From a virus: DNA of 64,000 nt. This document shows, piece after piece, positions 30,345 to 52,329 of the stretch. Position numbers and translations under genes: made by a program. Position 1 is the stretch's first letter. Each line of letters starts with the position of its first letter. The DNA is taken from positions 96,001 to 160,000 of IMG/VR virus record IMGVR_UViG_3300028840_006907. The stretch is one strand, 5' to 3'. Under the pieces are notes generated by a model. That model saw nothing but the letters and a program-made list of their open reading frames with translations. It made no database searches and was not told the origin of the DNA.

Positions 30345-30360
30345 TAAAAAGAAGATTAGC

Positions 30361-31068: not shown

Positions 31069-31175
31069 GGAGAGGTAGGTTTAATTGGTAAAATCAGTGC
31101 TTTGCACAGCACCTAAGCTAGCAAGGTGCCATTCCAGGGATGGATTTCGGGGTTCAAGTCCCCGTCTCTCTGCCA
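31069..31175 (+). other. atypical 107-nt tRNA-like element (canonical acceptor, D-arm and T-arm; aberrant anticodon region)
   Basis: GGAGAGG/TCTCTCT acceptor pairing, D-arm GGTTTAATTGGTAAAATC, T-arm CGGGGTTCAAGTCCCCG, CCA; middle holds GTGCTTTGCAC hairpin and GCTAGC palindrome. Confidence 0.35.
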
Positions 31176-31186
31176 ATAAATTATAC

Positions 31187-31275
31187 GGAGGTAGACCGGC
31201 TGGACGAGGAGCCTGTCTTGAAAACAGGTAGGGCTGTAAAAGGTCTTCGGGGTTCAAGTCCTCGTGCCTCCGCCA
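31187..31275 (+). tRNA. tRNA-Ser (anticodon TGA), type II
   Basis: Hand fold: acceptor GGAGGTA/TGCCTCC, loop CTTGAAA, CCA. Confidence 0.8.
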
Positions 31276-31351
31276 TAAAAACAATAGTTATCAAAAGGTA
31301 ACTATAAGTTCTTTGACATTTCGGTTATTATGAAGTAAGCACATATTTATA

Positions 31352-31430
31352 TGGTGAGCGTAGCTTAACTTGGTTAGAGCACTGGATTGTGGTTCCAGGA
31401 GTTGGGGATTCGAGTTCCCTCGCTCACCCC
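31352..31430 (+). tRNA. tRNA-His (anticodon GTG)
   Basis: Extra 5' G(-1) opposite C73, loop TTGTGGT, CCA. Confidence 0.85.
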
Positions 31431-31459
31431 ATAAATTTTCATTTTATATAGAATGAAAC

Positions 31460-31549
31460 GAGTAGGAGGTCAGATAGTGGTTGGCTGCACCGGACTGTAA
31501 ATCCGGATCTCGTAAAGGGACGCTGGGGGTTCGACGCCCTCCCTACTCA
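31460..31549 (+). tRNA. tRNA-Tyr (anticodon GTA), type II
   Basis: Hand fold: acceptor GAGTAGG/CCTACTC, loop CTGTAAA, long variable arm. Confidence 0.8.
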
Positions 31550-31563
31550 TTTGTCAATTTTAT

Positions 31564-31649
31564 GGAGAGCAACCGAATGGTTAGGAGGCGGTTTCGAAAA
31601 CCGTTAAGGCTGAAAGGCTAACTAAGTTCGATTCTTAGGCTCTCCGCCA
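31564..31649 (+). tRNA. tRNA-Ser (anticodon CGA), type II
   Basis: Hand fold: acceptor GGAGAGC/GCTCTCC, loop TTCGAAA, CCA. Confidence 0.8.
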
Positions 31650-32066
31650 TTAACAAACAGATTTTAAAAAAGATGATGCTACTCTTTTAATTGCTTCTTT
31701 ATCGGCGTTTTCCATTTGATTAACAATTTTTTTGGCCCAGGTATATCCAGAATCACCTCCCCAAACAAGCCATGCTACATAACCTTTATCTTTCCATGGT
31801 TCATTTTTATATTCTGGGTTTATCTTTTTATTCTTTTGATGACGGTCGAAGAAAGCTTTCATTCTTTTGACTGTTTTGGGAGATAAAATATCTCTGTTTT
31901 TAAGATTAACAGCTCTTTGAACACCAGACCCAACACCTTCTGCTTTTGCCTGTTCAACTGTTAGTCCTCCTTTACCACCGGCCATTCTTCTATATCTTAA
32001 ACCTTTTTCAGCTTCTTTGGCTACTGATTCAGGAGGTTTAAAATTGATATGTTCATATTTTTTCAT
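31650..32066 (-). CDS. hypothetical protein
   Basis: 138 aa ORF, Gly-rich GGKGGLT and WLVWGGDSGY motifs. Confidence 0.5.
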   Translation of the reverse strand: MKKYEHINFKPPESVAKEAEKGLRYRRMAGGKGGLTVEQAKAEGVGSGVQRAVNLKNRDILSPKTVKRMKAFFDRHQKNKKINPEYKNEPWKDKGYVAWLVWGGDSGYTWAKKIVNQMENADKEAIKRVASSFLKSVC

Positions 32067-32116
32067 AATAAATAACTCCTTATTATGTTTTTATATATTT
32101 ATAGATAATTATTTTT

Positions 32117-32202
32117 GGAGGATATCCGAATTGGTTTAGGGGCTCGGTTGGAAACCGAGTGGGCTCAATGCCTTGCAGGTTCGATCCCTGTGTCCTCCGC
32201 CA
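32117..32202 (+). tRNA. tRNA-Ser (anticodon GGA), type II
   Basis: Hand fold: acceptor GGAGGAT/GTCCTCC, loop TTGGAAA, CCA. Confidence 0.8.
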
Positions 32203-32282
32203 CTTTTTCAAAAAAACTTCCGAACAATTCTTGTTCTCATGTCGTATCATATATAGGGGCTGTTTTTTATGAAAGGTAAGAT

Positions 32283-32624
32283 ATGGGTCGATACCAAATA
32301 GCACTGGAGAAAAAACCTAAAAAGATCGAGTTAAATAAATCCGATACTAAGAAAATTGATATTTCTAATAAATCTGAATTAAAACAATCATATTTCACCG
32401 ATCTTAAAGTGATGATGGAGTTTATGGCTGAAAAGGGTGGTAATTGGATACCAGAAAAAGATCTTTATTTTGAAGAGATCCCTTTAGTAGCCTATAAATC
32501 TGATAACGAAATGGTTGTCATTACTGCAAAGGATATGCATCTTACGGAAAAGAATATAACGGAAATGGACAGAAAATCTTTTAGATCTGAGAAACCTCTT
32601 CGATTTAAAAAGTTTTTTGAGTAG
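32283..32624 (+). CDS. MxRY-family small protein (paralog 1)
   Basis: 113 aa; N-terminus MGRYQIALEKKPKK. Confidence 0.5.
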   Translation: MGRYQIALEKKPKKIELNKSDTKKIDISNKSELKQSYFTDLKVMMEFMAEKGGNWIPEKDLYFEEIPLVAYKSDNEMVVITAKDMHLTEKNITEMDRKSFRSEKPLRFKKFFE

Positions 32625-32636
32625 GATAGGAATCAT

Positions 32637-32945
32637 ATGAGCCGGTATCGTATCATAGTTGATGAAAAAAAAGAAGAAGAACAGATCCATTTAAGACAGG
32701 AACGAAATAAAGAAGAGAATAATCGCATATTTGACGATGTAAAAAAGATGAGTGACTTTATGTCCCTATTAAATTCAGTATGGGTTCCTACTCATTTTGG
32801 GTTCATTATGAAATACAGGGAATTTGAAGGAGTGATAACAGTTATTATAAGTACTGCAGAGTATAATAAAACAAAAGATCTTTTACCCAAAGAATTGTTA
32901 ATACAATTCGAAGCTCATGGAGTGGTAGTTTTTAAAAAATCATGA
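32637..32945 (+). CDS. MxRY-family small protein (paralog 2)
   Basis: 102 aa; N-terminus MSRYRIIVDEKK. Confidence 0.5.
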   Translation: MSRYRIIVDEKKEEEQIHLRQERNKEENNRIFDDVKKMSDFMSLLNSVWVPTHFGFIMKYREFEGVITVIISTAEYNKTKDLLPKELLIQFEAHGVVVFKKS

Positions 32946-33262
32946 GTAGATACAAAATAGCATTAAATAAGGGAAAGTCTCCCGAAGATAAAGAATTAAA
33001 TGAGTATTTTGCAAATAAACCAGAACATAGTATTTCGTTTATAAGTGCTGTAGATGTTTATAATTTTTTATCTGAAGAAAGTGATAAATGGTTCCCAGAT
33101 TCTGGGACACCTTTGATAATAAGTTATGTAAATAAAGATAAAAATAGATCGTTTATGATAACTCAATATAACTGGAATAAGACAAAGCATTTTATACCAG
33201 TATCTATTTTGAGATCCATTGAAGAAAGAGCACCGTTTTTCGTATCAAAAAAGAGAGTATGA
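32942..33262 (+). CDS. MxRY-family small protein (paralog 3)
   Basis: 106 aa; N-terminus MSRYKIALNKGK. Confidence 0.5.
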   Translation: MSRYKIALNKGKSPEDKELNEYFANKPEHSISFISAVDVYNFLSEESDKWFPDSGTPLIISYVNKDKNRSFMITQYNWNKTKHFIPVSILRSIEERAPFFVSKKRV

Positions 33263-33263
33263 A

Positions 33264-33788
33264 ATGGGACAAGAAATTTGGTTGTACCCAGATCCGGTTC
33301 AGATACCTAAGGTAAAAGAGTACGTTAAACTTTTAGGTAAGAGGGTGGATGATTATAATTACATCGATGGACCGGATTTTGATGGTTGGGAAATGAATTG
33401 TTGGATTGAATGGACAACAGTGGATCCCGAATGGGAGAGTGATACAGAAGAATACAGTTTTGAAGGTATGGATGAATTCTTAGAAATAGGTTATCAATCT
33501 CATCACTATAAGGGTGATTTCGCAGAATGTATTGCCTGGGAAATTAAAAAACGATTTACAATACTTAAAGTTGGTTGGGATTCAATTGGATGGTCCACTC
33601 AGTTCTGGGATAATGAGCCTTTTGATTTTCAGATAAAGATGAGACAAAAAACATTGAAAAAAGATTTGAGTGATGAAATGCGAAGGGATTTCGAAGAAGA
33701 AATAGTTATGATAAAAAAGATAAAAGAAGGCTGTATGGGTTTTGCCAAAGAGCTGTTCTTAAAAGCTGATCAATTACTAAAAAATTAA
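33264..33788 (+). CDS. hypothetical Trp-rich acidic protein
   Basis: ORF-track 33219-33788 trimmed to ATG just after upstream stop (MGQEIWLYPDP...). Confidence 0.5.
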   Translation: MGQEIWLYPDPVQIPKVKEYVKLLGKRVDDYNYIDGPDFDGWEMNCWIEWTTVDPEWESDTEEYSFEGMDEFLEIGYQSHHYKGDFAECIAWEIKKRFTILKVGWDSIGWSTQFWDNEPFDFQIKMRQKTLKKDLSDEMRRDFEEEIVMIKKIKEGCMGFAKELFLKADQLLKN

Positions 33789-33790
33789 AT

Positions 33791-33946
33791 ATGGGTAGAT
33801 ACGAGATAGCACTAGATAAGCAACCGAAGAGAGTTTTAAATTTGAATCATTTTAAACAACAAGCCCAAACTGTTATATCAAGCTGGCCTAAATGGAAAAG
33901 ACAGGGAGCGGGTAAAGAGGAAACAGCTCCAATTAAAAGAAAATGA
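33791..33946 (+). CDS. MxRY-family small protein (paralog 4, 51 aa)
   Basis: Hand translation MGRYEIALDKQPKRVLNL...; below ORF-track cutoff. Confidence 0.4.
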   Translation: MGRYEIALDKQPKRVLNLNHFKQQAQTVISSWPKWKRQGAGKEETAPIKRK

Positions 33947-33964
33947 GTTATTAAGGGATACAGT

Positions 33965-34318
33965 ATGAGTCGTTTTGATATTGCCTTGGGTAAAGAACTC
34001 CCAAAGGTAAAAAAGACCAAAAATTCTAAGAAAAGTAAGAAGGCTAAAAAGAAGGTTATTTCTCCGTATGATTTAAAGAGTAATGTAACTGTATTTACGA
34101 ATGCTCGTAAGATGTATGAGTTTATGGGTTTGGCAATAGGTTCTTGGCATCCTGTTATTTCTGACCCACCGGTGATTGGTTATCATAACCCGGCTTGGGA
34201 AGGGATCTCGGTTACAATTAGTGTTGAAGATTACAACAAAACAAAAAGTCCAATTAAGGGTATTAAGATGCCTGTTATGAGTCCTGTTGAAATTGTAGGA
34301 AATTTGTTTAGAAAATAA
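33965..34318 (+). CDS. MxRY-family small protein (paralog 5)
   Basis: 117 aa; N-terminus MSRFDIALGKELPK. Confidence 0.5.
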   Translation: MSRFDIALGKELPKVKKTKNSKKSKKAKKKVISPYDLKSNVTVFTNARKMYEFMGLAIGSWHPVISDPPVIGYHNPAWEGISVTISVEDYNKTKSPIKGIKMPVMSPVEIVGNLFRK

Positions 34319-34320
34319 AT

Positions 34321-34397
34321 GGCAGTGTAGCATAGTAGATTAATGCATTCGGCTCATATCCGGGAGATCGGAGGTTTAATTCCTCTCACTGCCACCA
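34321..34397 (+). tRNA. tRNA-Met/Ile2 (anticodon CAT)
   Basis: Hand fold: acceptor GGCAGTG/CACTGCC, loop CTCATAT, CCA. Confidence 0.75.
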
Positions 34398-34420
34398 ATT
34401 TACATAAAGAAAGAAGTAGT

Positions 34421-34621
34421 ATGACATATGAATTAGAATTTGATCCTGAATATGAAGAACAAATTCGTGAGGCAGAATTACTTGCTAGTGATATATGCCC
34501 TACGTGCCTTGGTTCAGGTAAGGTCTATGGTAAATGGAATACAAAAAAACGGTGTACTGACTGTGATGGTACAGGAAAACACCCGGATAATCATAAAGAA
34601 GAAAAGGAGCTTCCTTATTAA
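34421..34621 (+). CDS. small DnaJ-type zinc-finger protein (CXXCXGXG x2)
   Basis: Trimmed to ATG after tRNA; CPTCLGSGK and CTDCDGTGK. Confidence 0.5.
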   Translation: MTYELEFDPEYEEQIREAELLASDICPTCLGSGKVYGKWNTKKRCTDCDGTGKHPDNHKEEKELPY

Positions 34622-34900
34622 TGGCAACAAACAACCAGACTACAACGCGCTGGGATCCTAATGGTGAAATCGTGAAAAACTATGGTTGTTTGAGCGATTG
34701 TGACGGTGCGATAATCCGATGACGGTGGACTCCGTAGCTGAAGCTCCATATCAGCTTCTATGGGTAACAATGGAGATAACCCATAGCGCAGGGCTGTCAT
34801 AGCTTTAGAGTGTCATATAAGGAAGTATCCTTATATAAATTTATTAACCCTTTACAAAGGAGGTAGATATGCTATAACACAATAAACAAGGAGTTATAGT

Positions 34901-35137
34901 ATGTCTAGAAGTTACAGAAAGCCGTATGTAAAAGACGGCTATGGATCAAAGGGCAAAAGATTCATGAAGAATTATGCCAATCGGGTGGTAAGGCATTCTA
35001 AGGATGTTCCGAATGGCAGAGCCTATAAGAAATTATTTTGTTCTTATGATATTTGTGATTATTATTTCTACGTGGAAGTAAAGAGAAAGGATGATCCTTA
35101 TTTTGAACCAGAGTTCTGGAAATACGCCAGAAAATGA
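34901..35137 (+). CDS. hypothetical basic protein
   Basis: 78 aa ORF. Confidence 0.4.
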   Translation: MSRSYRKPYVKDGYGSKGKRFMKNYANRVVRHSKDVPNGRAYKKLFCSYDICDYYFYVEVKRKDDPYFEPEFWKYARK

Positions 35138-35309
35138 AATAAAAGTACAAGCTACAAGGATAATGCAGGAATTACTTAAACGCATCTTAGACAATTCTGC
35201 AGAGGTAGGACGACCAGACCCAGACATAAGATATGGCTCTTCTCTTCATGTTTTAAGTAAATCCATTGGGCAAGTCATGGCGGAGGAATTGGAGAAATTG
35301 AAGAAATGA
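35091..35309 (+). CDS. hypothetical protein
   Basis: 72 aa ORF overlapping neighbour in another frame. Confidence 0.35.
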   Translation: MILILNQSSGNTPENEIKVQATRIMQELLKRILDNSAEVGRPDPDIRYGSSLHVLSKSIGQVMAEELEKLKK

Positions 35310-35503
35310 AAGTTTCATTCCATTTTTTATGGTATGACTTCTGGGTCGGGTTCTTTTGGGATCAAAAGAAACGAATTTTGTACTTTTGCCCATTACCATG
35401 TGCCGTTATTAAAATGAAATTCAGGAAAAGGAAAATTGATAAAGGTTTTCGACATCCAAAATTAAGCTTCTTTTATAAAGTTTTTAAAGGGAAAAAAGAA
35501 TAA
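35306..35503 (+). CDS. hypothetical protein
   Basis: 65 aa ORF. Confidence 0.35.
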   Translation: MKVSFHFLWYDFWVGFFWDQKKRILYFCPLPCAVIKMKFRKRKIDKGFRHPKLSFFYKVFKGKKE

Positions 35504-35557
35504 CTATTTGTGCTGTAATAAAGATGGGATTTTAATTGTAGAAAAAGTTATAGGATT

Positions 35558-36142
35558 ATGATGAGTGAAGCTCGTAAAAGTTATGCTAAACGTTCATTTA
35601 TTATAGGTAAATTTAAATATATCTTTAAAATATATGTTACTGAAGAACTAATATTTTCATCAGAGGATCTATTCCCTTTAAGGGATAAGACTATGATAAC
35701 ATTTTTTAGAACGAATTCTTATATTGAAACAGCAAAACAAATGAATATCTCAATTCCTGAATTAAAGAAAAAGATCTTAAATACTATAGAATTACTTGGA
35801 GAAGTTAGATCATTCTATTTAACGAAAAAACTTGTTAGGCATAATAAAAAAAGTAAAGATTGTAATTTAGGAACTTATAGAACAAAAAGAATAAGAGTAA
35901 GTGAATATAAAAAACCATTAGTTGAAGAATTCAGATGTAATATTAAGAGGTATCAAAATATAATGGGTAAATTTTTGAGCCCTTTAAAAAAGGATGTTAT
36001 GGAATTAATATTGAAAAACGGCTCTTATTTAAAAACAGCTAAAAGATTGAATATAACACCCAAAAAAGTCAGAAATGAGCTTGTGGGAATAGTTAAATTA
36101 CTTAAAAAGGTGAAAAAGACTGATTGGATTATTCCATCATAG
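35558..36142 (+). CDS. DNA-binding protein with two HTH repeats (sigma-70 region-4-like)
   Basis: 194 aa; repeated YIETAKQMNIS / YLKTAKRLNIT helix-turn-helix-like segments. Confidence 0.5.
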   Translation: MMSEARKSYAKRSFIIGKFKYIFKIYVTEELIFSSEDLFPLRDKTMITFFRTNSYIETAKQMNISIPELKKKILNTIELLGEVRSFYLTKKLVRHNKKSKDCNLGTYRTKRIRVSEYKKPLVEEFRCNIKRYQNIMGKFLSPLKKDVMELILKNGSYLKTAKRLNITPKKVRNELVGIVKLLKKVKKTDWIIPS

Positions 36143-36328
36143 AAAAGAGATATTATGACCATATGTCCTTATTGTAATGAACAAAGAAGTTTAGAGCATG
36201 ATAATTCATGTGTTCTCTGGAAACGAAGAATATACATAGGTTTTACGAATGCCCTGATGTGCCTTTTCGGGATACTTTTAATATTTGGTCTAATGTTTCT
36301 TGTAATAAAGTATGGTTGAAAGATTTAT

Positions 36329-36410
36329 GGCCGAGTGGCAGAATTGGCAGACGCGCTAGATTTAGGATCTAGTTTCGAAAGAATTGGAGGTTCGATCCCT
36401 CTCTCGGCTA
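36329..36410 (+). tRNA. tRNA-Leu (anticodon TAG), type II
   Basis: Hand fold: acceptor GGCCGAG/CTCGGCT, loop TTTAGGA, long variable arm. Confidence 0.8.
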
Positions 36411-36438
36411 TTTAAAGAATTCTTTAAAGGTAAATAAG

Positions 36439-36741
36439 ATGAGAACTTATGGACAAATAGTAGATGATGTAAAAAAGGTTTCAGGGCCTCAATTAGTGGC
36501 TTTGTTCTGCGTCATAGCAGGTGAGTGTATAAAAAAGAAATGTTTCAATCCTGGTGGGATGAAAACAACTATTGCCAGAATAGAAAACAGAATTGCTGAA
36601 GAAATGGGTAAAGAAGAACCTAAACCTAAGATAGCGGAATTAACGTGTGGAAGTTGTGGAGCCACTTACACTTTAGATACGAATTATATACATCGTACAT
36701 GTGGCTTACGGGGCTGTAAAGGTAAGTTACATAAATTATAA
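36439..36741 (+). CDS. zinc-ribbon protein
   Basis: 100 aa; CGSCG...CGLRGC. Confidence 0.45.
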   Translation: MRTYGQIVDDVKKVSGPQLVALFCVIAGECIKKKCFNPGGMKTTIARIENRIAEEMGKEEPKPKIAELTCGSCGATYTLDTNYIHRTCGLRGCKGKLHKL

Positions 36742-36749
36742 ATAAAAAT

Positions 36750-36833
36750 GATCGGGTGGAGGAATTGGGATACTCAGCAAATTTAAGCTTTGCTGTCCTT
36801 TGTGACATGCGGGTTCGATTCCCGCCCCGATTA
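36750..36833 (+). tRNA. tRNA-Leu (anticodon TAA), type II
   Basis: Hand fold: acceptor GATCGGG/CCCGATT, loop TTTAAGC, long variable arm. Confidence 0.8.
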
Positions 36834-36846
36834 TTATATAATAATT

Positions 36847-37323
36847 ATGGTTTACAAAAATTGTAGAACATACGGCCCTTATGAAGGTAAAGATGGTAGA
36901 CTAAGAGTATGTGTAGTTTACCCTGATTTGAGTAAAAGAACAGTATCATATCCTAAATATCTTATGGAGAAACATTTGAATAGATATTTAGAAAAGAATG
37001 AAACAATAGATCATAAAGATGAAAATCCTTTAAATAATAAATTAAGTAATTTGAATATTCTTATTAAAGGTGATCATTGCCGTAAACATGCTAAGAGATT
37101 GTTACCTAGAAGTTTTAGCTGCCCTCAATGTAAGAAACCGTTTGTTTTATCAGGACGAAGATTACATGATGCTATACAAAACAGAAAAAGAGGTAAAGTG
37201 GGTCCTTTTTGTAATAAAAGATGTGGGGGAATATACGGAACAGATGTTCAAAATAAAAGAATAGAAGTTTTAGATGTGATTCAAATACCTGTTGAATATG
37301 AGCCTAAAATAAAAGAGATATAG
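36847..37323 (+). CDS. HNH homing endonuclease
   Basis: Trimmed to ATG after tRNA-Leu; IDHKDENPLNNKLSNL HNH_3-like motif. Confidence 0.7.
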   Translation: MVYKNCRTYGPYEGKDGRLRVCVVYPDLSKRTVSYPKYLMEKHLNRYLEKNETIDHKDENPLNNKLSNLNILIKGDHCRKHAKRLLPRSFSCPQCKKPFVLSGRRLHDAIQNRKRGKVGPFCNKRCGGIYGTDVQNKRIEVLDVIQIPVEYEPKIKEI

Positions 37324-37325
37324 AC

Positions 37326-37637
37326 ATGAATTTATATTGTCCAAAATGCAAGGAGCGTCGTGTTGCCCAAGTAGGTGCAGGGGCTTCTATAATGGTAAAT
37401 GGTAAACCTGCTGATTATAGCATTTTAAAAGGAATTATGAGATGCGGTGAGTGTGGTAGCTCATTGGTAGCAGAAGAAGATTTAATAGAATACAATCCTC
37501 ATAAATGTTTACCTGTTGGGTTTTCTTTTTGTGAAGGGTTTTGTCCACAGAAGACAGAAGATGGTAAATGCGGGTTTGATAAGTATGAGTTGTTAAGTTG
37601 TCCTTATGATTTAGGTAATCGTAATTGTAATTGTTAA
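37326..37637 (+). CDS. Cys-rich zinc-binding protein
   Basis: 103 aa with many Cys (CPKCKE, CGECG, CNC). Confidence 0.45.
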   Translation: MNLYCPKCKERRVAQVGAGASIMVNGKPADYSILKGIMRCGECGSSLVAEEDLIEYNPHKCLPVGFSFCEGFCPQKTEDGKCGFDKYELLSCPYDLGNRNCNC

Positions 37638-37644
37638 TAAATAA

Positions 37645-37727
37645 GGCCGGATGTTGGAATTGGTATACAAGGACGGCTCAAACCCGTTCGCCTTTACGGT
37701 ATGGGAGTTCGATTCTCCCTCCGGCTA
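37645..37727 (+). tRNA. tRNA-Leu (anticodon CAA), type II
   Basis: Hand fold: acceptor GGCCGGA/TCCGGCT, loop CTCAAAC, long variable arm. Confidence 0.8.
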
Positions 37728-37741
37728 AATAAAGGATTCTT

Positions 37742-38035
37742 ATGAATAAAAGGTGCTTTTATACGTCAATAGTGCAAAGCCGGTATCATATCAGAGGCAC
37801 TAAGCCACAGGAACCTTATATTCATTATATAGATCCTTATCTTCGGAAGGTATTGAGATATCCTCGGTGGTTAAGATCTGATCTTAAATTTGAAGTACAA
37901 GAGCCCGTTTTATCGAAAAAAGAATATTTAAAAATAAAAATGAAAATTATAGCTAAAATTGCAAAAAAAGCTACAGAGCAAATTCAAGCTGAAGAAGATA
38001 GACGCATTATCAAATTTTTAAAGAAAGTTGCATAA
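37742..38035 (+). CDS. hypothetical protein
   Basis: 97 aa ORF. Confidence 0.4.
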   Translation: MNKRCFYTSIVQSRYHIRGTKPQEPYIHYIDPYLRKVLRYPRWLRSDLKFEVQEPVLSKKEYLKIKMKIIAKIAKKATEQIQAEEDRRIIKFLKKVA

Positions 38036-38376
38036 TGGAAAATAAAGAAATTACTCTTAGGGAAATTGGTGAATTAGCCAATAAACTAGAAGATGAAATC
38101 GGAATAAATCTGGATGCTGTGATGAATAAGTTGACTCAGGAGGTTGGAGAGTTCAATGATGCCATCCAAAAGCACAGAGGTATTCACAGCCGGTCATGGG
38201 TACCTTTGGTTAAAGTGATAGATGAGCTAGGTGATGTCCTTGTGAATTTAATATCGATAGCTTATAGGCTTGAAATTAATCCAGATGCCTTTCCTGGTAT
38301 AGCTGAGAAGACTCTTAATAAGTTCAAAGAGCGTAAGAATGATTACATAGAAAATAAGGGGATTGATAATGTATAG
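38035..38376 (+). CDS. MazG-like nucleoside triphosphate pyrophosphohydrolase
   Basis: 113 aa; EVGEF...DELGDVLVNLISIA all-alpha NTP-PPase-like motifs. Confidence 0.55.
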   Translation: MENKEITLREIGELANKLEDEIGINLDAVMNKLTQEVGEFNDAIQKHRGIHSRSWVPLVKVIDELGDVLVNLISIAYRLEINPDAFPGIAEKTLNKFKERKNDYIENKGIDNV

Positions 38377-38557
38377 TTCGATTCAAACTGATTTAGTGAC
38401 CAGACGTGTCCTTATAAATGATTATGAGGTAAAGGATTATGAGGGAATTGTAAGAGCCGTCTTTCATGATGGTAAATATTTAAAAGCCATAGTGGAAAAA
38501 GAAGGTGGTGAATTAGAACAGTGTAATGTTGTAGAGATGAAAATTATTAGAAAATAA
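38363..38557 (+). CDS. hypothetical protein
   Basis: 64 aa ORF. Confidence 0.4.
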   Translation: MIMYSSIQTDLVTRRVLINDYEVKDYEGIVRAVFHDGKYLKAIVEKEGGELEQCNVVEMKIIRK

Positions 38558-38563
38558 ATATAC

Positions 38564-38642
38564 GCCCTGTTAGCTCAGTTGGATCTAGAGCAAGGCCCTT
38601 CTAAGGCTTAGGTCGGGGGTTCGAGTCCCTCACAGGGTGCCA
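38564..38642 (+). tRNA. tRNA-Arg (anticodon TCT)
   Basis: Hand fold: acceptor GCCCTGT/ACAGGGT, loop CTTCTAA, CCA. Confidence 0.85.
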
Positions 38643-38867
38643 TTTTAATAATGCTCTAATAGCGCATTTTTAATAAATGCGAATGGAGGATTATTATGGA
38701 CGAGAACAAGAAGCATTTAATTGAAATGGCTACACTTAAGTACGGAGAAATTTATCCCACTAGTGAATGTAATTCCCTCTTAGAATGATTTACTGTAGTG
38801 GGAGGTAAGTTGTACCTCTGGTTTAATTTAAAGGATGGGAATACAAGAGTCCTGTCACGGGAGATAA

Positions 38868-39443
38868 ATGATGGGGATAAGGATTGATATTGAACATGTC
38901 CGGAAGATCCAGGAAGAACGGAAAAGAATTAATTCTATACCATTAGAACAAATTGAATGGTACGAAGATGGGATAAAATTGGAAATTCATCCCGATTTAA
39001 TAAGAGAATTTTTATTTACAGGATTAGATAATACTGACTTCATAATAAGTGAAATGTACAAAGATAAAGGTCCTTACAGAGTTTTTAAAGATTCTGAATG
39101 TGGTAGATTATTTGATGAGAAGCAAATTGTCGGGCAGAAAATGTGCTATTTAGGTGATGTTGGTTGTGGCTCAACCGGTATAGGACCTAGACCTATATTT
39201 GTTGATGCTGAAGAGTTTGTGAAAAGAGTAAGTACTTTACGATCAGAAGGTATGACAAAAGAACAGTGTAAAGAGTTTGTCTTTAAGAAACTGGAAAAGA
39301 AAGGGTGTGGTTATAATTTTAGTGGATCCTGGATTGAATGGGATAGTCTTATAGAAGCAGTTTTCGGTAATTTAGAAACTGATAACACGAATCCAGTTGT
39401 CCGGAACGTAATTGAAATAATGAAACGTGATAAGTCCCTGTAG
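38868..39443 (+). CDS. hypothetical protein
   Basis: 191 aa ORF; stop overlaps start of tRNA-Arg. Confidence 0.5.
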   Translation: MMGIRIDIEHVRKIQEERKRINSIPLEQIEWYEDGIKLEIHPDLIREFLFTGLDNTDFIISEMYKDKGPYRVFKDSECGRLFDEKQIVGQKMCYLGDVGCGSTGIGPRPIFVDAEEFVKRVSTLRSEGMTKEQCKEFVFKKLEKKGCGYNFSGSWIEWDSLIEAVFGNLETDNTNPVVRNVIEIMKRDKSL

Positions 39444-39509
39444 TTCAACAGGATAGAACATAGGTTTCCTAAACCTAGTATTGGGGTTCGAGTCCCTACA
39501 GGGATACCA
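39434..39509 (+). tRNA. tRNA-Arg (anticodon CCT)
   Basis: Hand fold: acceptor GTCCCTG/CAGGGAT, loop TTCCTAA, CCA. Confidence 0.8.
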
Positions 39510-40868: not shown

Positions 40869-41246
40869 ATGGCAAAGAAAAAAATATTCGAAATCGATAA
40901 AGACAGTATTGTTAAAGCAACTAAAGAGGGTTATCTATATTGTTGTACTATACCACCTCATGGAGAAATCCGTGGGGATAGAAATAAGCGTTATATTTAT
41001 TACCATAGAGCTTTAATGGAACAAAAATTAGGTCGTTTTCTTAAATCTTGGGAAGAGGTTGACCATAAAAATGGGGATAAAACTGATAACCGCCTATCAA
41101 ATCTTGTTTTAAAGGTACATGGAGAGCATCAACGTGATCATGCCAATAATGGTAATAGCTTCTGGAAAAAGAGTCCTCTGAATAAACCTGGTGCGAAACG
41201 AAAGGCTCATAGAGTAATAGCTAAGTTTTTGGGAGAAATGTGTTAA
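40869..41246 (+). CDS. HNH homing endonuclease
   Basis: 125 aa; VDHKNGDKTDNRLSNL HNH_3-like motif. Confidence 0.7.
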   Translation: MAKKKIFEIDKDSIVKATKEGYLYCCTIPPHGEIRGDRNKRYIYYHRALMEQKLGRFLKSWEEVDHKNGDKTDNRLSNLVLKVHGEHQRDHANNGNSFWKKSPLNKPGAKRKAHRVIAKFLGEMC

Positions 41247-41478
41247 AGAATACTTTTTCGGCTTCTTGTGGAGTATACTTTTTAAATAAGAGTGATATCT
41301 TTTTTCCTTCAATATCTAAAATTCTTTCTACATAAGGTTGCCCTATTTCAGGTATAAATTTATTTGCAAATTTATTATTTTTCTGTATTTTCAATGAATG
41401 GTGATATCTTAATTTTGAAGGAATATCTTTTATTCTTTTTTTAGGTTTTTTCTCTAAAATTATCTCATATCTACCCAT
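41221..41478 (-). CDS. MxRY-family small protein (paralog 6, dispersed copy)
   Basis: 85 aa; N-terminus MGRYEIILEKKPKK. Confidence 0.5.
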   Translation of the reverse strand: MGRYEIILEKKPKKRIKDIPSKLRYHHSLKIQKNNKFANKFIPEIGQPYVERILDIEGKKISLLFKKYTPQEAEKVFFNTFLPKT

Positions 41479-41481
41479 GAT

Positions 41482-41985
41482 TTAAAAAGTTTTCCATGAA
41501 GTCCCTTCTGAATTACCTGCTCCGGGTCCAGCAGTAAAACCGCAGGTCTTACAAGTAGGGTACTGCCAGCATGTGGTACCATTTCCTTCATAAGTCCGAC
41601 AACAACGACAGTTTGTATATGTATATTTTATATCAATTCCCCCACATTTGGGGCATGGGTCTTGTCCGTTTCTTAGAATACCTTTTTCATCAAATAACTT
41701 TTTCAGTCGTCTTTTTTCTTTGTATAGGTTCTCAATCTTTTTATCTATTTTTTCAATCATTTTAGTAAAGATAGGATTAGCCTTGTTCCAAGCAATTCGG
41801 ATTGATTCATATTCTGCTCCTAAAGCACAAATACTTACCTTTACTGTATTATTACATTTTTTATTTGAGCACCGGGCCTCACCGGGATTAAAGGTTGTAT
41901 AACCGCAATGCCCAGCCAAGATTCCTTTGGTACCACATTTTAAACAGGGGTTAACCTTTTTATTAATAGGAGTTTTTAGTTCCAT
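41482..41985 (-). CDS. Lar-like restriction alleviation protein with extra C-terminal zinc ribbon
   Basis: 167 aa; PCLKCG...C..C...IRIAWNKANP resembles Lar family; second CPKCGG...CKTCG. Confidence 0.5.
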   Translation of the reverse strand: MELKTPINKKVNPCLKCGTKGILAGHCGYTTFNPGEARCSNKKCNNTVKVSICALGAEYESIRIAWNKANPIFTKMIEKIDKKIENLYKEKRRLKKLFDEKGILRNGQDPCPKCGGIDIKYTYTNCRCCRTYEGNGTTCWQYPTCKTCGFTAGPGAGNSEGTSWKTF

Positions 41986-42164
41986 TTAAGTCTCTTTCTG
42001 TTTAAAGCAATCACGCCAATTATCACCGAAATGTTCTTGTGCAAATTTAATTGTAATAACTCTGACTGAATTACAATTATCACAAGGTCTATCCATACTA
42101 TCCTGCTCATGACCACATTCTGAACATACATAATTCATTTTATTGCCTCCCTCAGGTTTATATA

Positions 42165-42566
42165 TTATCTACAAGCTCCTGCACAACTCTTACCACAGTG
42201 CTTCCAAAATTCATCCCATTTCTTTTTACTGGCATTTTTCTTAGGTAACCGGGCAATGGGGCCTATCCATCTTACATCATCTGACCCACATTTACACATA
42301 CGTACTACACCAGAACGTTTAAGTACAAAATAATCAGGCCATACATAAATTTTATGGCATTCGTAACATATTACTTTATAGGAAGCTCGGGTAGTTTCTG
42401 TCCTTTCACAATAAACTTCCCCTTTCCTAGGTTTATTTTTTCGTAAAGGTTTAAGGGGTGTTTGTTTATATACCTTTGCTCTTATAGTTTTAAGAAATTT
42501 CTGGAATATCCTTTGTCTTTCCTCACCATTAATAGCATCTCTTAATTCTTGGCCTAACGTTTTCAT
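42165..42566 (-). CDS. zinc-ribbon protein
   Basis: 133 aa; CYECH, CKCGS, CGKSCAGAC. Confidence 0.4.
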   Translation of the reverse strand: MKTLGQELRDAINGEERQRIFQKFLKTIRAKVYKQTPLKPLRKNKPRKGEVYCERTETTRASYKVICYECHKIYVWPDYFVLKRSGVVRMCKCGSDDVRWIGPIARLPKKNASKKKWDEFWKHCGKSCAGACR

Positions 42567-42612: not shown

Positions 42613-42915
42613 TTAAATATTTTGATTTATGATTTTGCCTTTATATTCCTTAAGCATCTCATCCATATTGGTGATCCGAATTTTTTTATTGAACTGCTTT
42701 GCCATTCCCCTGGGACTTTTTAAAATTAGTCCAGTATCATCTAATTCGAAATATTCCCATTCCCGACGTTGATATCCAAGAGATTTAACAATACGCATAC
42801 CGTAACCTCCCCCTTCATTTTTATGTACTGCATTAGATTGACAGCCCATAACATTGTAACTGGCTAAATATTTTAGGAGGGGAAATTCCTCATATTTGAT
42901 TTCTTTGACTTTCAT
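42613..42915 (-). CDS. hypothetical protein
   Basis: 100 aa ORF. Confidence 0.4.
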   Translation of the reverse strand: MKVKEIKYEEFPLLKYLASYNVMGCQSNAVHKNEGGGYGMRIVKSLGYQRREWEYFELDDTGLILKSPRGMAKQFNKKIRITNMDEMLKEYKGKIINQNI

Positions 42916-43277
42916 TTTTTACTGTAACCTTTTTTACGTTTATATTCTACTCTTGTTAACCATCCACTAAAAGAAATTAATGCTCTTCTTTTTAATCTGG
43001 GCTTTGAATAAAAGCGTGATTTATAGTGCTTCCTTTGAAATGATAACTTTCTTCTGAGTTTGATTAATTCAGGATCAATCGGTTTTAAATGATACTCTTC
43101 TTGTTTTTCAGGTTCAGGCTCTCCCGTAAAAGTACCCATGGCAACTGGAGTCCTACCTACAAAAACAATAGTACAAGTCCATGTGCAATTAGCACAACAA
43201 GTAGAAGTTAATCCCCATCCTTGAGGGCATTGATTATAATAAGTTCCTCCAGTGCCTGTGCAAGAGATATCTATCAT
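42912..43277 (-). CDS. Cys-rich hypothetical protein
   Basis: 121 aa; CPQGWGLTSTCCANCTWTC. Confidence 0.4.
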   Translation of the reverse strand: MIDISCTGTGGTYYNQCPQGWGLTSTCCANCTWTCTIVFVGRTPVAMGTFTGEPEPEKQEEYHLKPIDPELIKLRRKLSFQRKHYKSRFYSKPRLKRRALISFSGWLTRVEYKRKKGYSKK

Positions 43278-46401: not shown

Positions 46402-47571
46402 TTATCCAAAATTAGACTTTCGGGTCAGAGGTATCTTTTTTGCAGTATCCGCAAATAGTTTTAACCCTTTCCATGAATCAATGTGGTAGGAAGTAATATA
46501 AGGTGCCTTAGGAGGTGGGCAACCACAATGCCCGTTAACTCTAACTGATCTTTTACCCTCTTTATTGGCATACATCTCCTTAGCATCTTTTAAAGGCATA
46601 TTCCCATCGACCATCCAGTAAGTCCATGCTCTTTCAAAGGTGAAACCCGGGAGTTCTCCAGAGATAGAGAAAGGAACTTCTCCGTCACCTTTTTTAGATA
46701 CAATATCAATACCGGCTAGATCAAGTTCAAGTCTGATGTAATGATCACAAGCTACCTCTCCAGCAAGATTCCCCATTGTATAACTTTCTCCATTATTGGC
46801 TAGATGCGTTTCGCATTTCTTTTTGATTTTTTTCTGATAACATTCTTCGTGGAAATATTTCCATTTTTCATAAAGAACTTCATCATTTTCTTCAATGACA
46901 TAATTTTCATCTATATTTTTTCTGCCATTTTTGTTTTTCTCATAACCATATTCTTTATCAATAGTCAGGTCAATGAGCCCCCTATTGAAAATAGTATGAT
47001 GAAATATATAGACAGTATTTTTGTCTGTGTTTCGAAGCTCTTTTTCAATTTCTGTTAAAGTTTTCCCGACGTATTTGGAGTTTATCTCAAATTGGTTAGA
47101 GTACCGTAATCTTTTGGTTTTATGGCAATACTCTACTTCCCATCCTTTATTACAGTGGGAACATTTTACATAAGCGGGAGGTAAATCATTGCCCATTGAG
47201 AATGAGATACTTATAGGATACGGCCTTTTGTTTTTTGCCCAATCAAAATCTTCTGCATCCATCTCTTCTCGGGTTAATATATTAGGGATATTTTCTTTAC
47301 TCCATCTTTCAATAAAATCCCAAAATTCTGTCTTTGTAAAAACTTTTCCTACAGGAAAATTGAAAATTTTCTCTACCGGAATAAAACCTGTCGCAGTACC
47401 TAAATTACCACACGTATCGAGATAATATCGACCTAAGACATAATATTCGTATAGTCTTTCATCACGTTTGTAACCTGCTTCGTGTCTTTCATTGATCATT
47501 TCCCAAAATGTGTTGTAAGATTTAAGTGACTTTTCGATTCCTTTAATTGTGTTATAGTCTTGTTTTTTCAT
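46402..47571 (-). CDS. hypothetical protein
   Basis: 389 aa ORF, no motif recognised. Confidence 0.5.
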   Translation of the reverse strand: MKKQDYNTIKGIEKSLKSYNTFWEMINERHEAGYKRDERLYEYYVLGRYYLDTCGNLGTATGFIPVEKIFNFPVGKVFTKTEFWDFIERWSKENIPNILTREEMDAEDFDWAKNKRPYPISISFSMGNDLPPAYVKCSHCNKGWEVEYCHKTKRLRYSNQFEINSKYVGKTLTEIEKELRNTDKNTVYIFHHTIFNRGLIDLTIDKEYGYEKNKNGRKNIDENYVIEENDEVLYEKWKYFHEECYQKKIKKKCETHLANNGESYTMGNLAGEVACDHYIRLELDLAGIDIVSKKGDGEVPFSISGELPGFTFERAWTYWMVDGNMPLKDAKEMYANKEGKRSVRVNGHCGCPPPKAPYITSYHIDSWKGLKLFADTAKKIPLTRKSNFG

Positions 47572-48599
47572 TTTACCACATGTTTAGAAGTGATTGTTTC
47601 TGCGAATTCTGGCCCCCTATCATAGTCATCAATCCATATGTTATCACAGTGCCGATTTCCTTTTTTCTCACTGCCGTACCATTGTGTCCTCCAATGTGCC
47701 TCAACTCTTATCTTATGATCCAGTTTCCATTTTCCGACACCTCCAGCTTGTTTGATACGAGTTATATCGTTATTCTTATCCTTTATATTTGAACCAACAA
47801 TAATAAATCTTTTGTTGGTAGCTTTTTCTTTCCTTTGTTCCAGTTTTCTTTTCTTGGTTTTATTTTTAATATTTTTTAATCTTGCATCAAAATCTAGTGG
47901 ATCATGGTTTTTTAAATCAGGTTTTTTGCTTGTGATATATAAAAGAGTGTTAAATACAAATTTTGCGAATTCTTCTAAATGATCAACATTTTTATATAAA
48001 TCATATTTATCTACTTCTTCCTTTTTTCTTTTTGTCTCATTTTCAATATAAATCTTTAATTGATCCTGAATTTTTCCAGGTTGCATTTCTATGTGGAAAT
48101 AAAAGGTGGTATCATTAAATGGTATGTCTGGTGTAGGTTTTAATAATGAACATGCCATTACTCTAATATGCTTTTCAGTATTGAAATCTCGAAGATAAAC
48201 GTAAAAACCATTTACAGGATGTTTACTTCCATCTATATCATTTATAGAAAAAAGACCTGGATCTATCTGTATAAAAATTTCTCTAAACGGGGATCTTAAG
48301 AAATAAGCATCAGTATTACAATTTGTTTGGGCTAGTCTTGCTGAAAGTTCTGGTGTTATATAGTATATCTGATCAGCATTATTTTTCATTTGATACATAT
48401 GAAAATATGTATTGTAAAAATGACTTATTCTTGCTGGTGAATCAAATTCAGTAAAAATAGAAGAAGTAGCATTACAAAATTGTTTGAATGTAGGATCAAA
48501 ACCAATATCGAGCATATTTTGTACTAGTATAGTTGGGGCTACTGTCTCTAGATGTTTAATAGCCAGTTCATAATGAGTTTTTGTGAAATACTTCTCCAT
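47568..48599 (-). CDS. hypothetical protein
   Basis: 343 aa ORF. Confidence 0.5.
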   Translation of the reverse strand: MEKYFTKTHYELAIKHLETVAPTILVQNMLDIGFDPTFKQFCNATSSIFTEFDSPARISHFYNTYFHMYQMKNNADQIYYITPELSARLAQTNCNTDAYFLRSPFREIFIQIDPGLFSINDIDGSKHPVNGFYVYLRDFNTEKHIRVMACSLLKPTPDIPFNDTTFYFHIEMQPGKIQDQLKIYIENETKRKKEEVDKYDLYKNVDHLEEFAKFVFNTLLYITSKKPDLKNHDPLDFDARLKNIKNKTKKRKLEQRKEKATNKRFIIVGSNIKDKNNDITRIKQAGGVGKWKLDHKIRVEAHWRTQWYGSEKKGNRHCDNIWIDDYDRGPEFAETITSKHVVK

Positions 48600-50179: not shown

Positions 50180-50255
50180 TGGGATGTCGCCTAACGGTAT
50201 GGCACCTGACTCTGGCTCAGGAATAATCAGGGTTCAAGTCCTTGCATCCCAGCCA
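50180..50255 (+). tRNA. tRNA-Gln (anticodon CTG)
   Basis: U1:A72 acceptor TGGGATG/CATCCCA, loop CTCTGGC, CCA. Confidence 0.8.
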
Positions 50256-50279
50256 ATTAACTTTAGGAAACAACAATAA

Positions 50280-50353
50280 CGGGGTGTGGCCTAGTCTGGT
50301 AAGGCGTCTGCTTCGGGAGTAGAAAATCGGAGGTTCAAATCCTCTCATCCCGA
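50280..50353 (+). tRNA. tRNA-Pro (anticodon CGG)
   Basis: C1:G72 acceptor CGGGGTG/CATCCCG, loop TTCGGGA. Confidence 0.8.
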
Positions 50354-50371
50354 TTAATAAAGGTAAAAATT

Positions 50372-50926
50372 ATGAGACCCATGATATATCCTAAAAAGAA
50401 TAGGAAAATAAAAAGACCACGAAGATCGAGACCATTAAAAAGATGTGTTCATATTGATGGAAAAGAATGGAGGTGGGAAACAACAGGTCACTGGGATAGT
50501 GATGCAGGTAGTTATGGTTGTTTAACTGATCAGAGCGTTAAAATACTTTCTCCTGATAATAAATTTTTTTCTATACGTGCTCATGAAGTAATGAAATGTG
50601 AACCGATAAGATGGGAATGTTGTGTTGGTGAAAAATTAATAACAGTTTTACCGGGGAAAGTAAAACAGTATATAATAGATAATTTAATTGATCATGATAT
50701 TTCAAGATCGTTAAGGAGACGCATTCATATAGATGGTAGAGAATGGGGTTGGCAGTTTAGTAAAGGAAATCCTGCATATCAGCTCTGTGGAGTATCTGTC
50801 CGTTCTCCTGATAATCGGTATTTATGGATTTATGCAAAAGAGTTAGGATACGAGATTAAACCATCAGTAATTAAAAAGTATATAATTGATAATTTATTAT
50901 ATCGGGGTATAGCGCAGCCTGGTTAG
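50372..50926 (+). CDS. hypothetical protein with internal duplicated ~75-aa module
   Basis: 184 aa; repeats HIDG(K/R)EW(R/G)W...SPDN(K/R)...YIIDNL; 3' end overlaps tRNA-Pro. Confidence 0.45.
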   Translation: MRPMIYPKKNRKIKRPRRSRPLKRCVHIDGKEWRWETTGHWDSDAGSYGCLTDQSVKILSPDNKFFSIRAHEVMKCEPIRWECCVGEKLITVLPGKVKQYIIDNLIDHDISRSLRRRIHIDGREWGWQFSKGNPAYQLCGVSVRSPDNRYLWIYAKELGYEIKPSVIKKYIIDNLLYRGIAQPG

Positions 50927-50979
50927 CGCGTCTGAATGGGGTTCAGAAGGTCGCCAGTTCAACTCTGGCTACCCCGACC
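50902..50979 (+). tRNA. tRNA-Pro (anticodon GGG)
   Basis: C1:G72 acceptor CGGGGTA/TACCCCG, loop ATGGGGT, CCA. Confidence 0.8.
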
Positions 50980-50998
50980 AAAGTTCTTTGAAAATTAT

Positions 50999-51274
50999 GG
51001 GGGTGTGGCAGAAGGGATATGCAGTCCTCAAAAAGTAGACAGGTCTGGGTAAAACCGGGTCATTACAGGAAGTTTGTATTCGCTACTGAAACGAAACAAA
51101 GGGAAGGTAGTGTAACGCTTACGGACTGGTGCTTGCAAGGGTTTACGGAAGACACTGACACGTTGCCTGGGATCTGGAGACAGCCCAGGAGGGTTTGTAA
51201 ATAACGGCAGGAAGTCCTTTTTCCCAATAGTGAGCTTTGGATGACTTATGCCGGTTCGAATCCGGTCACCTCCA
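50999..51274 (+). other. tRNA-like ends (acceptor GGGGGTG/CACCTCC, T-arm GCCGGTTCGAATCCGGT) enclosing ~200-nt GC-rich insert; unresolved structured RNA or intron-containing tRNA
   Basis: Acceptor complementarity and canonical T-arm at 3' end; no normal anticodon arm found by hand; GC content far above surroundings. Confidence 0.4.
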
Positions 51275-51360
51275 TCAAAATAAATTAAATAGATAGATAG
51301 GCAAACTGGCAAGCCATTTGGTTGTAATAGAAAATGTGTAGCAAGATCATAAAGACATAC

Positions 51361-51632
51361 TGGAGTGTAGCTCAGTGGCAGAGCGGGTGGCTGTCTTGGT
51401 TGGCAGCTCTTATAGGAAACTGTAAGATGAAAACTCGGTGAATTCAGGGAAACCTAAGTCTTAAACAGATATGGCAATCCTGAGCGAAGCCTTGAGAAAG
51501 GAACGTGCAGAGACTTATAGCGCCGAGCACCTAAGGTGAAAACTATGGTGATGAGATAGTCCAGGCCCTTGGGAAATCAGGGGAATTACTGTAACCACTT
51601 GGTCGGGGGTTCAAATCCCTCCACTCCAGCCA
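51361..51632 (+). tRNA. tRNA-Asn (anticodon GTT) interrupted by a group I intron
   Basis: Exon 1 51361-51394 (TGGAGTG...GGTGG-CTGT), exon 2 51592-51632 (TAA-CCACT...CACTCCAGCCA); spliced loop CTGTTAA; U1:A72 as in bacterial tRNA-Asn. Confidence 0.7.
51395..51591 (+). ncRNA. group I intron (~197 nt) in tRNA-Asn anticodon loop
   Basis: 5' exon ends in U; IGS GGCAG pairs with exon CUGU; R-like GCAGAGACTTATAGCG and S-like GAGATAGTCC elements; terminal G before exon 2. Confidence 0.65.
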
Positions 51633-51683
51633 ATTTTAAAGGGTCCTAGAGGAATTTACTTTAAAGAAAAGGAGAAAAATTAA

Positions 51684-51884
51684 ATGAGTAAAGATGAGAA
51701 ACCTGATTATTCGAAAGATTTCGATACATGTCCTTGGTGTAATAAAATACCAAAAGTATCGAAACATTTCAGATATGATGAATGGCAACTGATCCATCGT
51801 TGTGATAAATTACTTACTGTAATTAGTATGGATTGGACTGAATTAGATAGTCTTAAAAATCGATGGAATCGACCTAAGAAATGA
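51684..51884 (+). CDS. hypothetical protein
   Basis: 66 aa ORF; CPWCNK. Confidence 0.4.
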   Translation: MSKDEKPDYSKDFDTCPWCNKIPKVSKHFRYDEWQLIHRCDKLLTVISMDWTELDSLKNRWNRPKK

Positions 51885-52156
51885 CAGAATGTACTATATG
51901 TGAAAGAGAAACTCCTGAGAAATATGTGGAGAAACATCACTTGACTCCTTGTAGCCGAGGAGGAAAGGATAAGGAGAAAACACTTACTTGTATTGATTGC
52001 GGAGATCAGGTACATCGATTATTTACGAATAAAGAATTGGAGAGAGACTATTATACACTCGAAAAATTATTAGCTCATCCTAAAATCCAGAAATGGAAGA
52101 AATGGGTTAAGAATAAGAGATTCGGGATATGTATGAAACGAAAAAAGAAGAGATAA
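51881..52156 (+). CDS. small HNH-type endonuclease-like protein
   Basis: 91 aa; CTICE...EKHHLTPCSRGG...CIDCGDQVH. Confidence 0.5.
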   Translation: MTECTICERETPEKYVEKHHLTPCSRGGKDKEKTLTCIDCGDQVHRLFTNKELERDYYTLEKLLAHPKIQKWKKWVKNKRFGICMKRKKKR

Positions 52157-52163
52157 TATATAA

Positions 52164-52239
52164 CGGGCGGTCGCCTAATCTGGTATGGCACCACATTTGG
52201 GATGTGGAATAACTGGAAGTTCAAATCTTCTCCGCCCGA
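52164..52239 (+). tRNA. tRNA-Pro (anticodon TGG)
   Basis: C1:G72 acceptor CGGGCGG/CCGCCCG, loop TTTGGGA. Confidence 0.8.
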
Positions 52240-52253
52240 TATATTTTTAAATC

Positions 52254-52329
52254 AATAAGTTACTGGGATGTAGTTCAGTTGAAAGAACACCGGAATTTGG
52301 ATCCGGGGGTCGCAGGTTTGAGCCCTGCC
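52254..52329 (+). tRNA. tRNA-Gln (anticodon TTG)
   Basis: U1:A72 acceptor TGGGATG/CATCCCA, loop ATTTGGA, CCA. Confidence 0.8.

Follow-up and report, generated by a model that had tools for sequence, protein, structure and literature searches.

We describe here a small viral gene whose product joins a predicted zinc ribbon of the Lar superfamily, one that falls below the threshold of the Lar models, and a probable coiled coil to a second, undescribed ribbon with seven cysteines; this combination is new. The gene lies in a 64,000-nucleotide stretch of a virus genome (positions 96,001 to 160,000 of IMG/VR record IMGVR_UViG_3300028840_006907), which we call the window, and positions below are those of the window unless another contig is named. 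Our preferred reading, to which we give a probability of roughly 45%, is that the protein is a multivalent zinc-ribbon binder acting on DNA or on a host complex. That it serves specifically to alleviate type I restriction, as the name of its Lar-like relatives would imply, we regard as doubtful.

The gene and its product

The gene occupies 41482..41985 on the minus strand, where the list of open reading frames (ORFs) and the sequence itself give an ATG start, 167 codons and a TAA stop; the initial annotation had the span exactly right and named no strand. Fourteen of the 167 residues are cysteines, distributed over two separate regions. The N-terminal half carries the arrangement NPC14LKC17GTKGILAGHC27GYTTFNPGEARC39SNKKC44...C53...SIRIAW66N67K68AN, and the C-terminal part the arrangement DPC111PKC114GG...C126RC128C...C139W...C145KTC148G...GNSEGTSW164KTF. 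The gene is real beyond chance, because an identical protein is encoded on metagenomic contigs of 388-470 kb (for example JGI 3300017963 Ga0180437_10000019), because all the motif cysteines of both modules are kept in six homologues, and because a codon comparison with the homologue on contig L004 gives a dN/dS ratio of 0.13 at a dS of about 1.1. The gene evolves under purifying selection. Two of the homologues, P0002 and P0003, are full-length and 76-77% identical to the protein, and a megablast search with the region of the gene against cultured phages returned no match.

The N-terminal module is a remote relative of Lar

The first module spans residues 10-72 (41770..41958, minus strand) and has two cysteine knuckles, C14-x2-C17 and C39-x4-C44, together with two extra cysteines, C27 and C53, and a motif characteristic of its subfamily, CGYTTFNPG. 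In the AlphaFold2 (AF2) model the knuckles are followed by a helix at residues 58-69 that carries W66-N67-K68, and knuckles and helix are predicted with a local confidence score (pLDDT) of 92-98. The module thus has the general layout of a Lar-type ribbon, two cysteine knuckles and then a helix with W-N-[KR]. The initial annotation had recognised a Lar-family pattern here, and most of it stands, since PCLKCG, C39-x4-C44 and W66-N67-K68 are all present, but the stretch that it had written as AxxAWN actually reads IRIAWN. It had also proposed a search with the Lar profile as the way to check the assignment, and on that point the answer is negative, for no direct match is found with the models of Pfam, NCBIfam or PHROGs. 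The description of the module as Lar-like is therefore upheld as remote homology, through intermediate sequences, hhalign and tblastn, but not as a direct match to the Lar models.

For the intermediate sequences, the five N-modules nearest to ours were made into a profile (A2), and an HMMER search with it through 1.8 billion representative proteins retrieved 79 of them at E<1e-3. Two of these were excluded before the set was scanned against the Lar models: P0014 proved on inspection to be a repeat artefact, and P0023, a protein of 5137 residues with nine short partial matches, was left out by analogy with P0014, without an inspection of its own. The remaining 77 include 19 with a match to PF14354 (Lar_restr_allev; best 4e-12), 16 with one to TIGR03655 (anti_R_Lar; best 7.5e-11) and 21 with one to phrog_599, the "Lar-like restriction alleviation protein" (best 3.3e-11). 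The pattern common to the family is PCxKCG...I...DCGY[ST][ST]FNxG...C..CG...C...WN..N. When the family of 77 (A4) is aligned by hhalign with the Lar protein of the Rac prophage, now called RalR (E. coli K-12 b1348), the probability is 86.5% (E 4.6e-6) over 50 columns, and the register is the expected one, with both knuckles aligned and W66-N67-K68 paired with W50-N51-K52. A tblastn search of 50,697 cultured-phage records gave a single match, gp53 of Bacteroides phage BKO1-3 (XPO94857.1), which is 33% identical to the protein over residues 11-97 (E 3e-4) and is itself annotated as a Lar-like restriction alleviation protein. The homology to Lar is thus detectable by way of intermediates, because relatives found with the A2 profile match the Lar models, because the A4 family aligns with RalR, and because the tblastn match carries the Lar-like name. 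A search with RalR itself found close enterobacterial homologues alone, too narrow a set for a diverse Lar profile. From these comparisons we would place the N-module in a sister subfamily at the edge of PF14354, as a relative at the level of the superfamily and not as a formal member. As a separate observation, P0025, an N-module relative at 4001-4333 of contig L043, has polA and gpsA as its neighbours; the contig is short, and its context looks cellular rather than phage-like.

Structural comparison puts mostly Lar proteins at the top, but every match is weak. About 11 of the top 20 Foldseek matches among the viral models of BFVD are annotated as Lar, with template-modelling (TM) scores, normalised to the target, of 0.5-0.62, and none reaches E<1e-3; a Foldseek search of the PDB had no match under 1e-3, and sequence searches of the PDB with the profiles of the N- and C-modules returned noise alone. 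Small ribbons of this kind invite another explanation, namely that the protein is a gene-expression factor whose ribbons bind DNA, RNA or RNA polymerase, as in Elf1, TFIIS, Rpb9 or NrdR, and that it has no role in defence at all. We consider this unlikely. The similarity lies in the fold, which is small and very common, and no Foldseek match has E<1e-3, whereas the relatives found by sequence are specifically those annotated as Lar-like, and the module shuffling and patchy presence described below fit accessory genes of an arms race better than core regulators.

The alignment with RalR raises a further alternative. Later work on the 64-residue Lar protein described it as RalR, a non-specific DNase toxin that depends on Mg or Ca and is inactivated by K52Q, and its toxicity is lowered by changes at positions 14, 37, 39, 49, 51 and 52; the RefSeq name for Lar is now endodeoxyribonuclease toxin RalR. 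The N-module could accordingly be a metal-dependent, non-specific DNase that nicks or degrades host DNA, with restriction alleviated indirectly through the damage and with the C-terminal module targeting or regulating the nuclease. In its favour, the prototype is itself such a DNase and now bears the corresponding RefSeq name, and our protein keeps the aligned W-N-K, so that N51 and K52 of RalR correspond to N67 and K68. Set against this, the homology is remote, R49 aligns with A65, and the columns of C14, T37 and Y39 are gapped or not conserved, so that these four residues have no conserved counterpart, and the position of K52 varies. The ribbon, moreover, is about 60 residues long and has no recognisable nuclease active site. 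Finally, no antitoxin-like RNA resembling RalA, the antisense antitoxin of RalR, accompanies the gene, in that nothing between 39510 and 50179 scores as high as the gathering score of any Rfam family, a search that covers described RNA families. Taken together these points make a RalR-like nuclease quite unlikely.

A helical linker and a second ribbon with seven cysteines

Between the two modules, residues 73-100 (41686..41769, minus strand) are modelled by AF2 as a single helix with a pLDDT of about 86-97, within a full model whose mean pLDDT is 82.9 and whose residues 1-100 are very confident. The sequence of the helix reads as a heptad with a hydrophobic spacing of three and four (I77, I80, I84, L87, L94, L97/F98), and it is probably a coiled coil or another oligomerisation element. 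P0004, P0005, gp53 of BKO1-3 and many other family members have the same coiled-coil tail after their N-module, and many of the family give noise-level matches to coiled-coil families of Pfam.

The C-module (residues 105-167; 41485..41673, minus strand) was delimited in an alignment of 17 members that were gathered by a profile search, by scans of three contig collections and from the homologues of the window's own gene. Its pattern is C111-x2-C114-x11-C126-x-C128-x10-C139-x5-C145-x2-C148, and all seven cysteines are invariant in the 17 members; a motif RTYEGNGxTCW and a tail GNSxGxxW complete it, and W140, W164, P143 and most of RTYEGNGxTCW are invariant or nearly so. The second CxxC...CxxC module that the initial annotation had seen is thus present, as C111-x2-C114 and C145-x2-C148, and is joined by the invariant C126, C128 and C139. 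These three extra cysteines may hold a second metal. AF2 predicts a beta-hairpin formed by residues 119-126 and 138-145.

The C-module also exists on its own, as free-standing ORFs of 65-119 residues (mostly about 65), and it is carried by phage-like contigs of large size, one of them an IMG/VR contig of 207 kb, as well as by contigs binned with metagenome-assembled genomes (MAGs), one a Planctomycetota MAG and one archaeal. The view that the ribbon had been added to the C-terminus is borne out in full: the module has two CxxC knuckles, is separable, stands alone at about 65 residues and occurs in other fusions as well. Since each of the two modules stands alone in other genomes, the two-module nature of the protein is independently confirmed. 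The C-module has no Pfam family, and its matches there are to generic zinc-ribbon knuckles and below threshold; no relative of known structure was found for it in the PDB by sequence. As far as such searches can tell, it belongs to no described family.

We considered whether the C-module might be a duplicate of the Lar-like ribbon that precedes it. In hhalign its two knuckles pair with the two of the N-module family, as is found for a generic zinc ribbon, and the probability of the match is 87.5%. The columns that produce this score, however, number 12 (PCPKCGxxdIxy) and lie around the first knuckle. With the first knuckle removed the score is 17.5, against column shuffles with a mean of 11.7, a standard deviation of 2.9 and a maximum of 19.9, and the C-module shows no W-N helix. 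Because the score vanishes into the range of the shuffles once the first knuckle is taken away, an internal duplication is not demonstrable, and we rejected it. Also set aside as spurious were Bacilli proteins of about 490 residues from a genome scan, in which the knuckle NGQDKCPKCG alone was matched.

Neighbouring genes and module shuffling

The gene sits within a tightly packed run of small cysteine-rich ORFs on the minus strand. Immediately upstream is an ORF of 50 residues (41986..42138, minus strand) with the pattern CSECG...CDNCN, taken from the ORF list and also called as a gene on contig L001; its matches to zinc-ribbon families of Pfam are weak (DZR, E 0.012). Its stop abuts the start codon of our gene, which makes co-translation of the two within a single operon probable. 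Downstream, three nucleotides past the stop, begins an ORF of 85 residues without a Pfam match (41221..41478, minus strand; MGRYEIILEKKPKK...NTFLPKT), homologues of which stand at the same position on contigs L050 and L052. Two further members of the run belong to the same operon and have no Pfam family: a cysteine-rich ORF of 133 residues at 42165-42566 (minus strand), ending in ...CGKSCAGACR, and an ORF of 121 residues at 42912-43277 (minus strand), beginning MIDISCTGTGGTYYNQCPQGWGLTSTCCANCTWTC. Among the neighbouring genes Pfam was informative for a weak methyltransferase domain and a NUMOD endonuclease alone. Nothing stood out in a scan for promoters and terminators near the gene, which has fewer promoter-like sites than shuffled sequence.

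Comparison of related loci shows that the modules are rearranged from genome to genome. The N-module, coiled coil and C-module are fused in the window and on contigs L004 and L005; L002 has instead a gene for the N-module and coiled coil, a gap of 4 bp and then a gene in which the C-module is fused to a third small cysteine domain, which we call the W module; L052 has a fusion of W and C; and L050 has W alone, the N-module with its coiled coil, and a second, degenerate paralogue of the latter. Among the individual sequences N occurs without C (P0004, P0005), C alone (P0008-P0010, L013-L015), and the two fused (the window, P0002, P0003). The W module is about 75-83 residues long, follows the pattern MxWPKLKxDxxGLTVxTL...CEIP...PCKxCGIRV...V.L.., has no Pfam match, and was found alone or fused to the C-module at 959-1210 of L050, 377-~600 of L002 and 430-~700 of L052. 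No paralogue of N, C or W was found elsewhere in the window. Because the N and C products are fused in one genome and neighbours in another, they would be expected to work together on the same target. Such combinatorial turnover of modules is typical of accessory, arms-race loci.

On the other side the site is bounded by a convergent gene for an HNH_3 endonuclease (40869..41246, plus strand), for which a PF13392 match is on record, as it also is for the counterparts on L004, L005 and L050; L002 and L052 carry fragments of HNH_3 genes at their ends. This gene forms the conserved right-hand border of the shuffling site in all related loci, and the endonuclease may drive recombination there. Within 3 kb there are also another HNH gene and an endonuclease of the NUMOD type, and with an HNH_3 gene at the border of every related locus one could suppose that the variable small genes are selfish cargo, hitch-hiking with endonuclease-driven recombination and serving no specific function of the phage. 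The strong purifying selection on our gene (dN/dS 0.13) and the invariance of the seven and six cysteines and two tryptophans across distant phages speak against cargo of that sort, which we hold to be improbable.

Across the C-module loci no neighbouring gene is conserved. In one more alternative the protein would not bind zinc but would be a cysteine-rich peptide that is the substrate or partner of a radical S-adenosylmethionine (radical-SAM) maturase, as in ribosomally synthesised and post-translationally modified peptides (RiPPs). Two adjacencies suggested it. A radical-SAM/SPASM-like gene (2950-3993 of L013) lies directly upstream of a C-module gene, and a radical-SAM gene in BKO1-3 (2130-2969 of L049, PQ571267.1) overlaps the start of gp53. 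The adjacency is probably a coincidence, because the two enzymes share CxxxCxxC and nothing more; they are otherwise unrelated, neither the window nor any of the at least ten other loci has a gene of this kind, and the N-module is folded confidently as a zinc ribbon by AF2. We rejected the link, and the explanation appears to us highly improbable. On the same contig L013, downstream of the C-module gene (4190-8174), we noted at least six paralogous small genes whose products all start with MK.K.DF[IV]TNSSS.SF.

A proposed mode of action

Our preferred reading, that of a multivalent binder, can be put as a sequence of events. The coiled coil would make the protein a dimer or a higher oligomer, and so present several copies of the Lar-like and seven-cysteine heads. 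Early in infection these heads would grip DNA or a host complex of DNA processing or defence, for example a type I restriction-modification enzyme, and stoichiometric binding would then leave the phage DNA protected or the host taken over. A more ambitious version treats the HNH_3-bordered site as a combinatorial counter-defence cassette of huge phages, in which W, N and C are swapped, fused and duplicated, and the C-module as a new family of inhibitors of a defence system or host factor that shares one target with the Lar-like head; this version we think unlikely on present evidence.

Several results weigh against this reading. Direct scans with hmmscan against Pfam, NCBIfam and PHROGs found no match to PF14354, TIGR03655 or phrog_599 at E<=10, whether the whole protein or residues 1-75 were used. 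Eight of the ten nearest relatives likewise do not match the Lar hidden Markov model (HMM), the two that do being P0025 (24.9 bits) and P0024 (E 0.11), and most of the individual Lar matches that were inspected among the relatives score 18-25 bits, under the Pfam gathering score of 28.6. When the N-module is represented by its close homologues alone, the hhalign probability against RalR falls to 10-11%, with the register unchanged. The position equivalent to K52 is variable across the N-module subfamily, and the function of the Lar family rests on one protein for which conflicting activities have been reported. For the C-module the AF2 confidence is low, at 53-80 in the full model and 58 when it is modelled alone. 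As to genomic context, some N-module relatives neighbour the housekeeping genes polA and gpsA, and no restriction-related gene is consistently linked.

Even where the homology is accepted, the term "anti-restriction" is not safe to transfer, because the prototype is now annotated as the DNase toxin RalR and because the name of the family rests on a single protein. The matter is of wider consequence, for the Lar-like annotation found in thousands of phage genomes goes back to that one protein of an E. coli prophage, with its conflicting activities. A natural fusion of N and C, together with sister versions in which the parts are split and re-fused, names a partner domain, and so offers a concrete experimental entry to Lar-like proteins; the value of the locus lies in this handle rather than in the surprise of the arrangement itself. 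If the cassette version is true, the locus would give the first handle on what these widespread and mechanistically obscure proteins bind. Should the experimental entry give a negative result, the gene would simply join the other small accessory genes for zinc ribbons in huge phages, and the practical lesson would be not to carry the name "restriction alleviation protein" over to it.

The wider window

The window is AT-rich (34% GC) and contains 34 tRNA genes in several arrays, at 2426-3822, 21795-39509 and 50180-53189. One of them, at 53116-53189, has the anticodon CTA and is called "tRNA-Pyl" by ARAGORN; it is a potential amber suppressor. TAG could be recoded in part of the phage genome, and if it is, ORFs called with table 11 in other parts of the window may have been cut short; the gene described here and its neighbours end in TAA. 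A full-length transfer-messenger RNA (tmRNA) is encoded at 15870-16282 on the minus strand (Rfam 159.9 bits; tag peptide EKTNTVNFCAMFSALNLAAIHQAEEAVV according to ARAGORN), and a group I catalytic intron lies at 51385-51583 on the plus strand (RF00028, full model, 92.8 bits) in the tRNA-rich region. Among the protein-coding genes are a nicotinate phosphoribosyltransferase (NAPRTase) of the salvage of nicotinamide adenine dinucleotide (NAD) at 62452-63624 (minus strand, E 1e-49), which could counter NAD-depleting defences, and a protein of 574 residues with a eukaryotic-type protein kinase domain at 57900-59624 (minus strand). A product of 343 residues at 47568-48599 (minus strand), 5.6 kb upstream of our gene and in the same strand run, has a precomputed match to PF26125 (AcrVA2-like), which was not reproduced at E<=0.05 in a rescan with Pfam, perhaps because the two model versions differ. 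Further genes encode an AAA ATPase, sugar-nucleotide enzymes, a sigma-like protein and several HNH and NUMOD endonucleases. With so many accessory functions, and with its tRNA genes, tmRNA and intron, the window fits the accessory region of a huge phage.

Comparison with known systems

According to PMC4041452 (citing King & Murray 1995), Lar of the Rac prophage was reported to alleviate restriction by EcoKI, as Ral of phage lambda does. Relief of restriction together with enhanced modification by a type IA system such as EcoKI is known, within the family, for Rac Lar alone. Our protein resembles Lar/RalR in having a ribbon of about 60 residues with an N-terminal PCxxCG knuckle, a second knuckle of the CxxC type and a helix with W-N-K/R; both are borne by a phage or prophage, and they align over 50 columns at the level of profiles. 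It differs in a five-residue insertion (CGYTTFNPG), a second knuckle of the form C-x4-C and two extra cysteines, in falling below every Lar model threshold, and in its length of 167 residues against 64 (2.6 times), the additional length being made up of the coiled coil and the second cysteine domain. Lambda Ral, about 24% identical to Lar according to PMC4041452, is not a detectable homologue of our protein, and nothing links the latter to HsdM.

The closest annotated relative is gp53 of BKO1-3, which shares the N-module and the coiled coil, as P0004 and P0005 do, but has no seven-cysteine module and comes from a 45-kb phage of gut Bacteroides and not from a huge phage; its own Lar-like annotation was transferred from phrog_599. 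The eukaryotic and archaeal transcription factors Elf1/ELOF1 are at 16% identity, and the likeness is one of fold alone, in a small fold that is very common. A precedent for the mode of action, and not evidence for it, is provided by Enki, a zinc-ribbon protein of 52 residues from Vibrio phage 1.080.O that inhibits the AbiH and retron defences (bioRxiv 10.1101/2024.06.14.598830): no homology is claimed, and what the two have in common is that each is a small zinc-ribbon protein of a phage.
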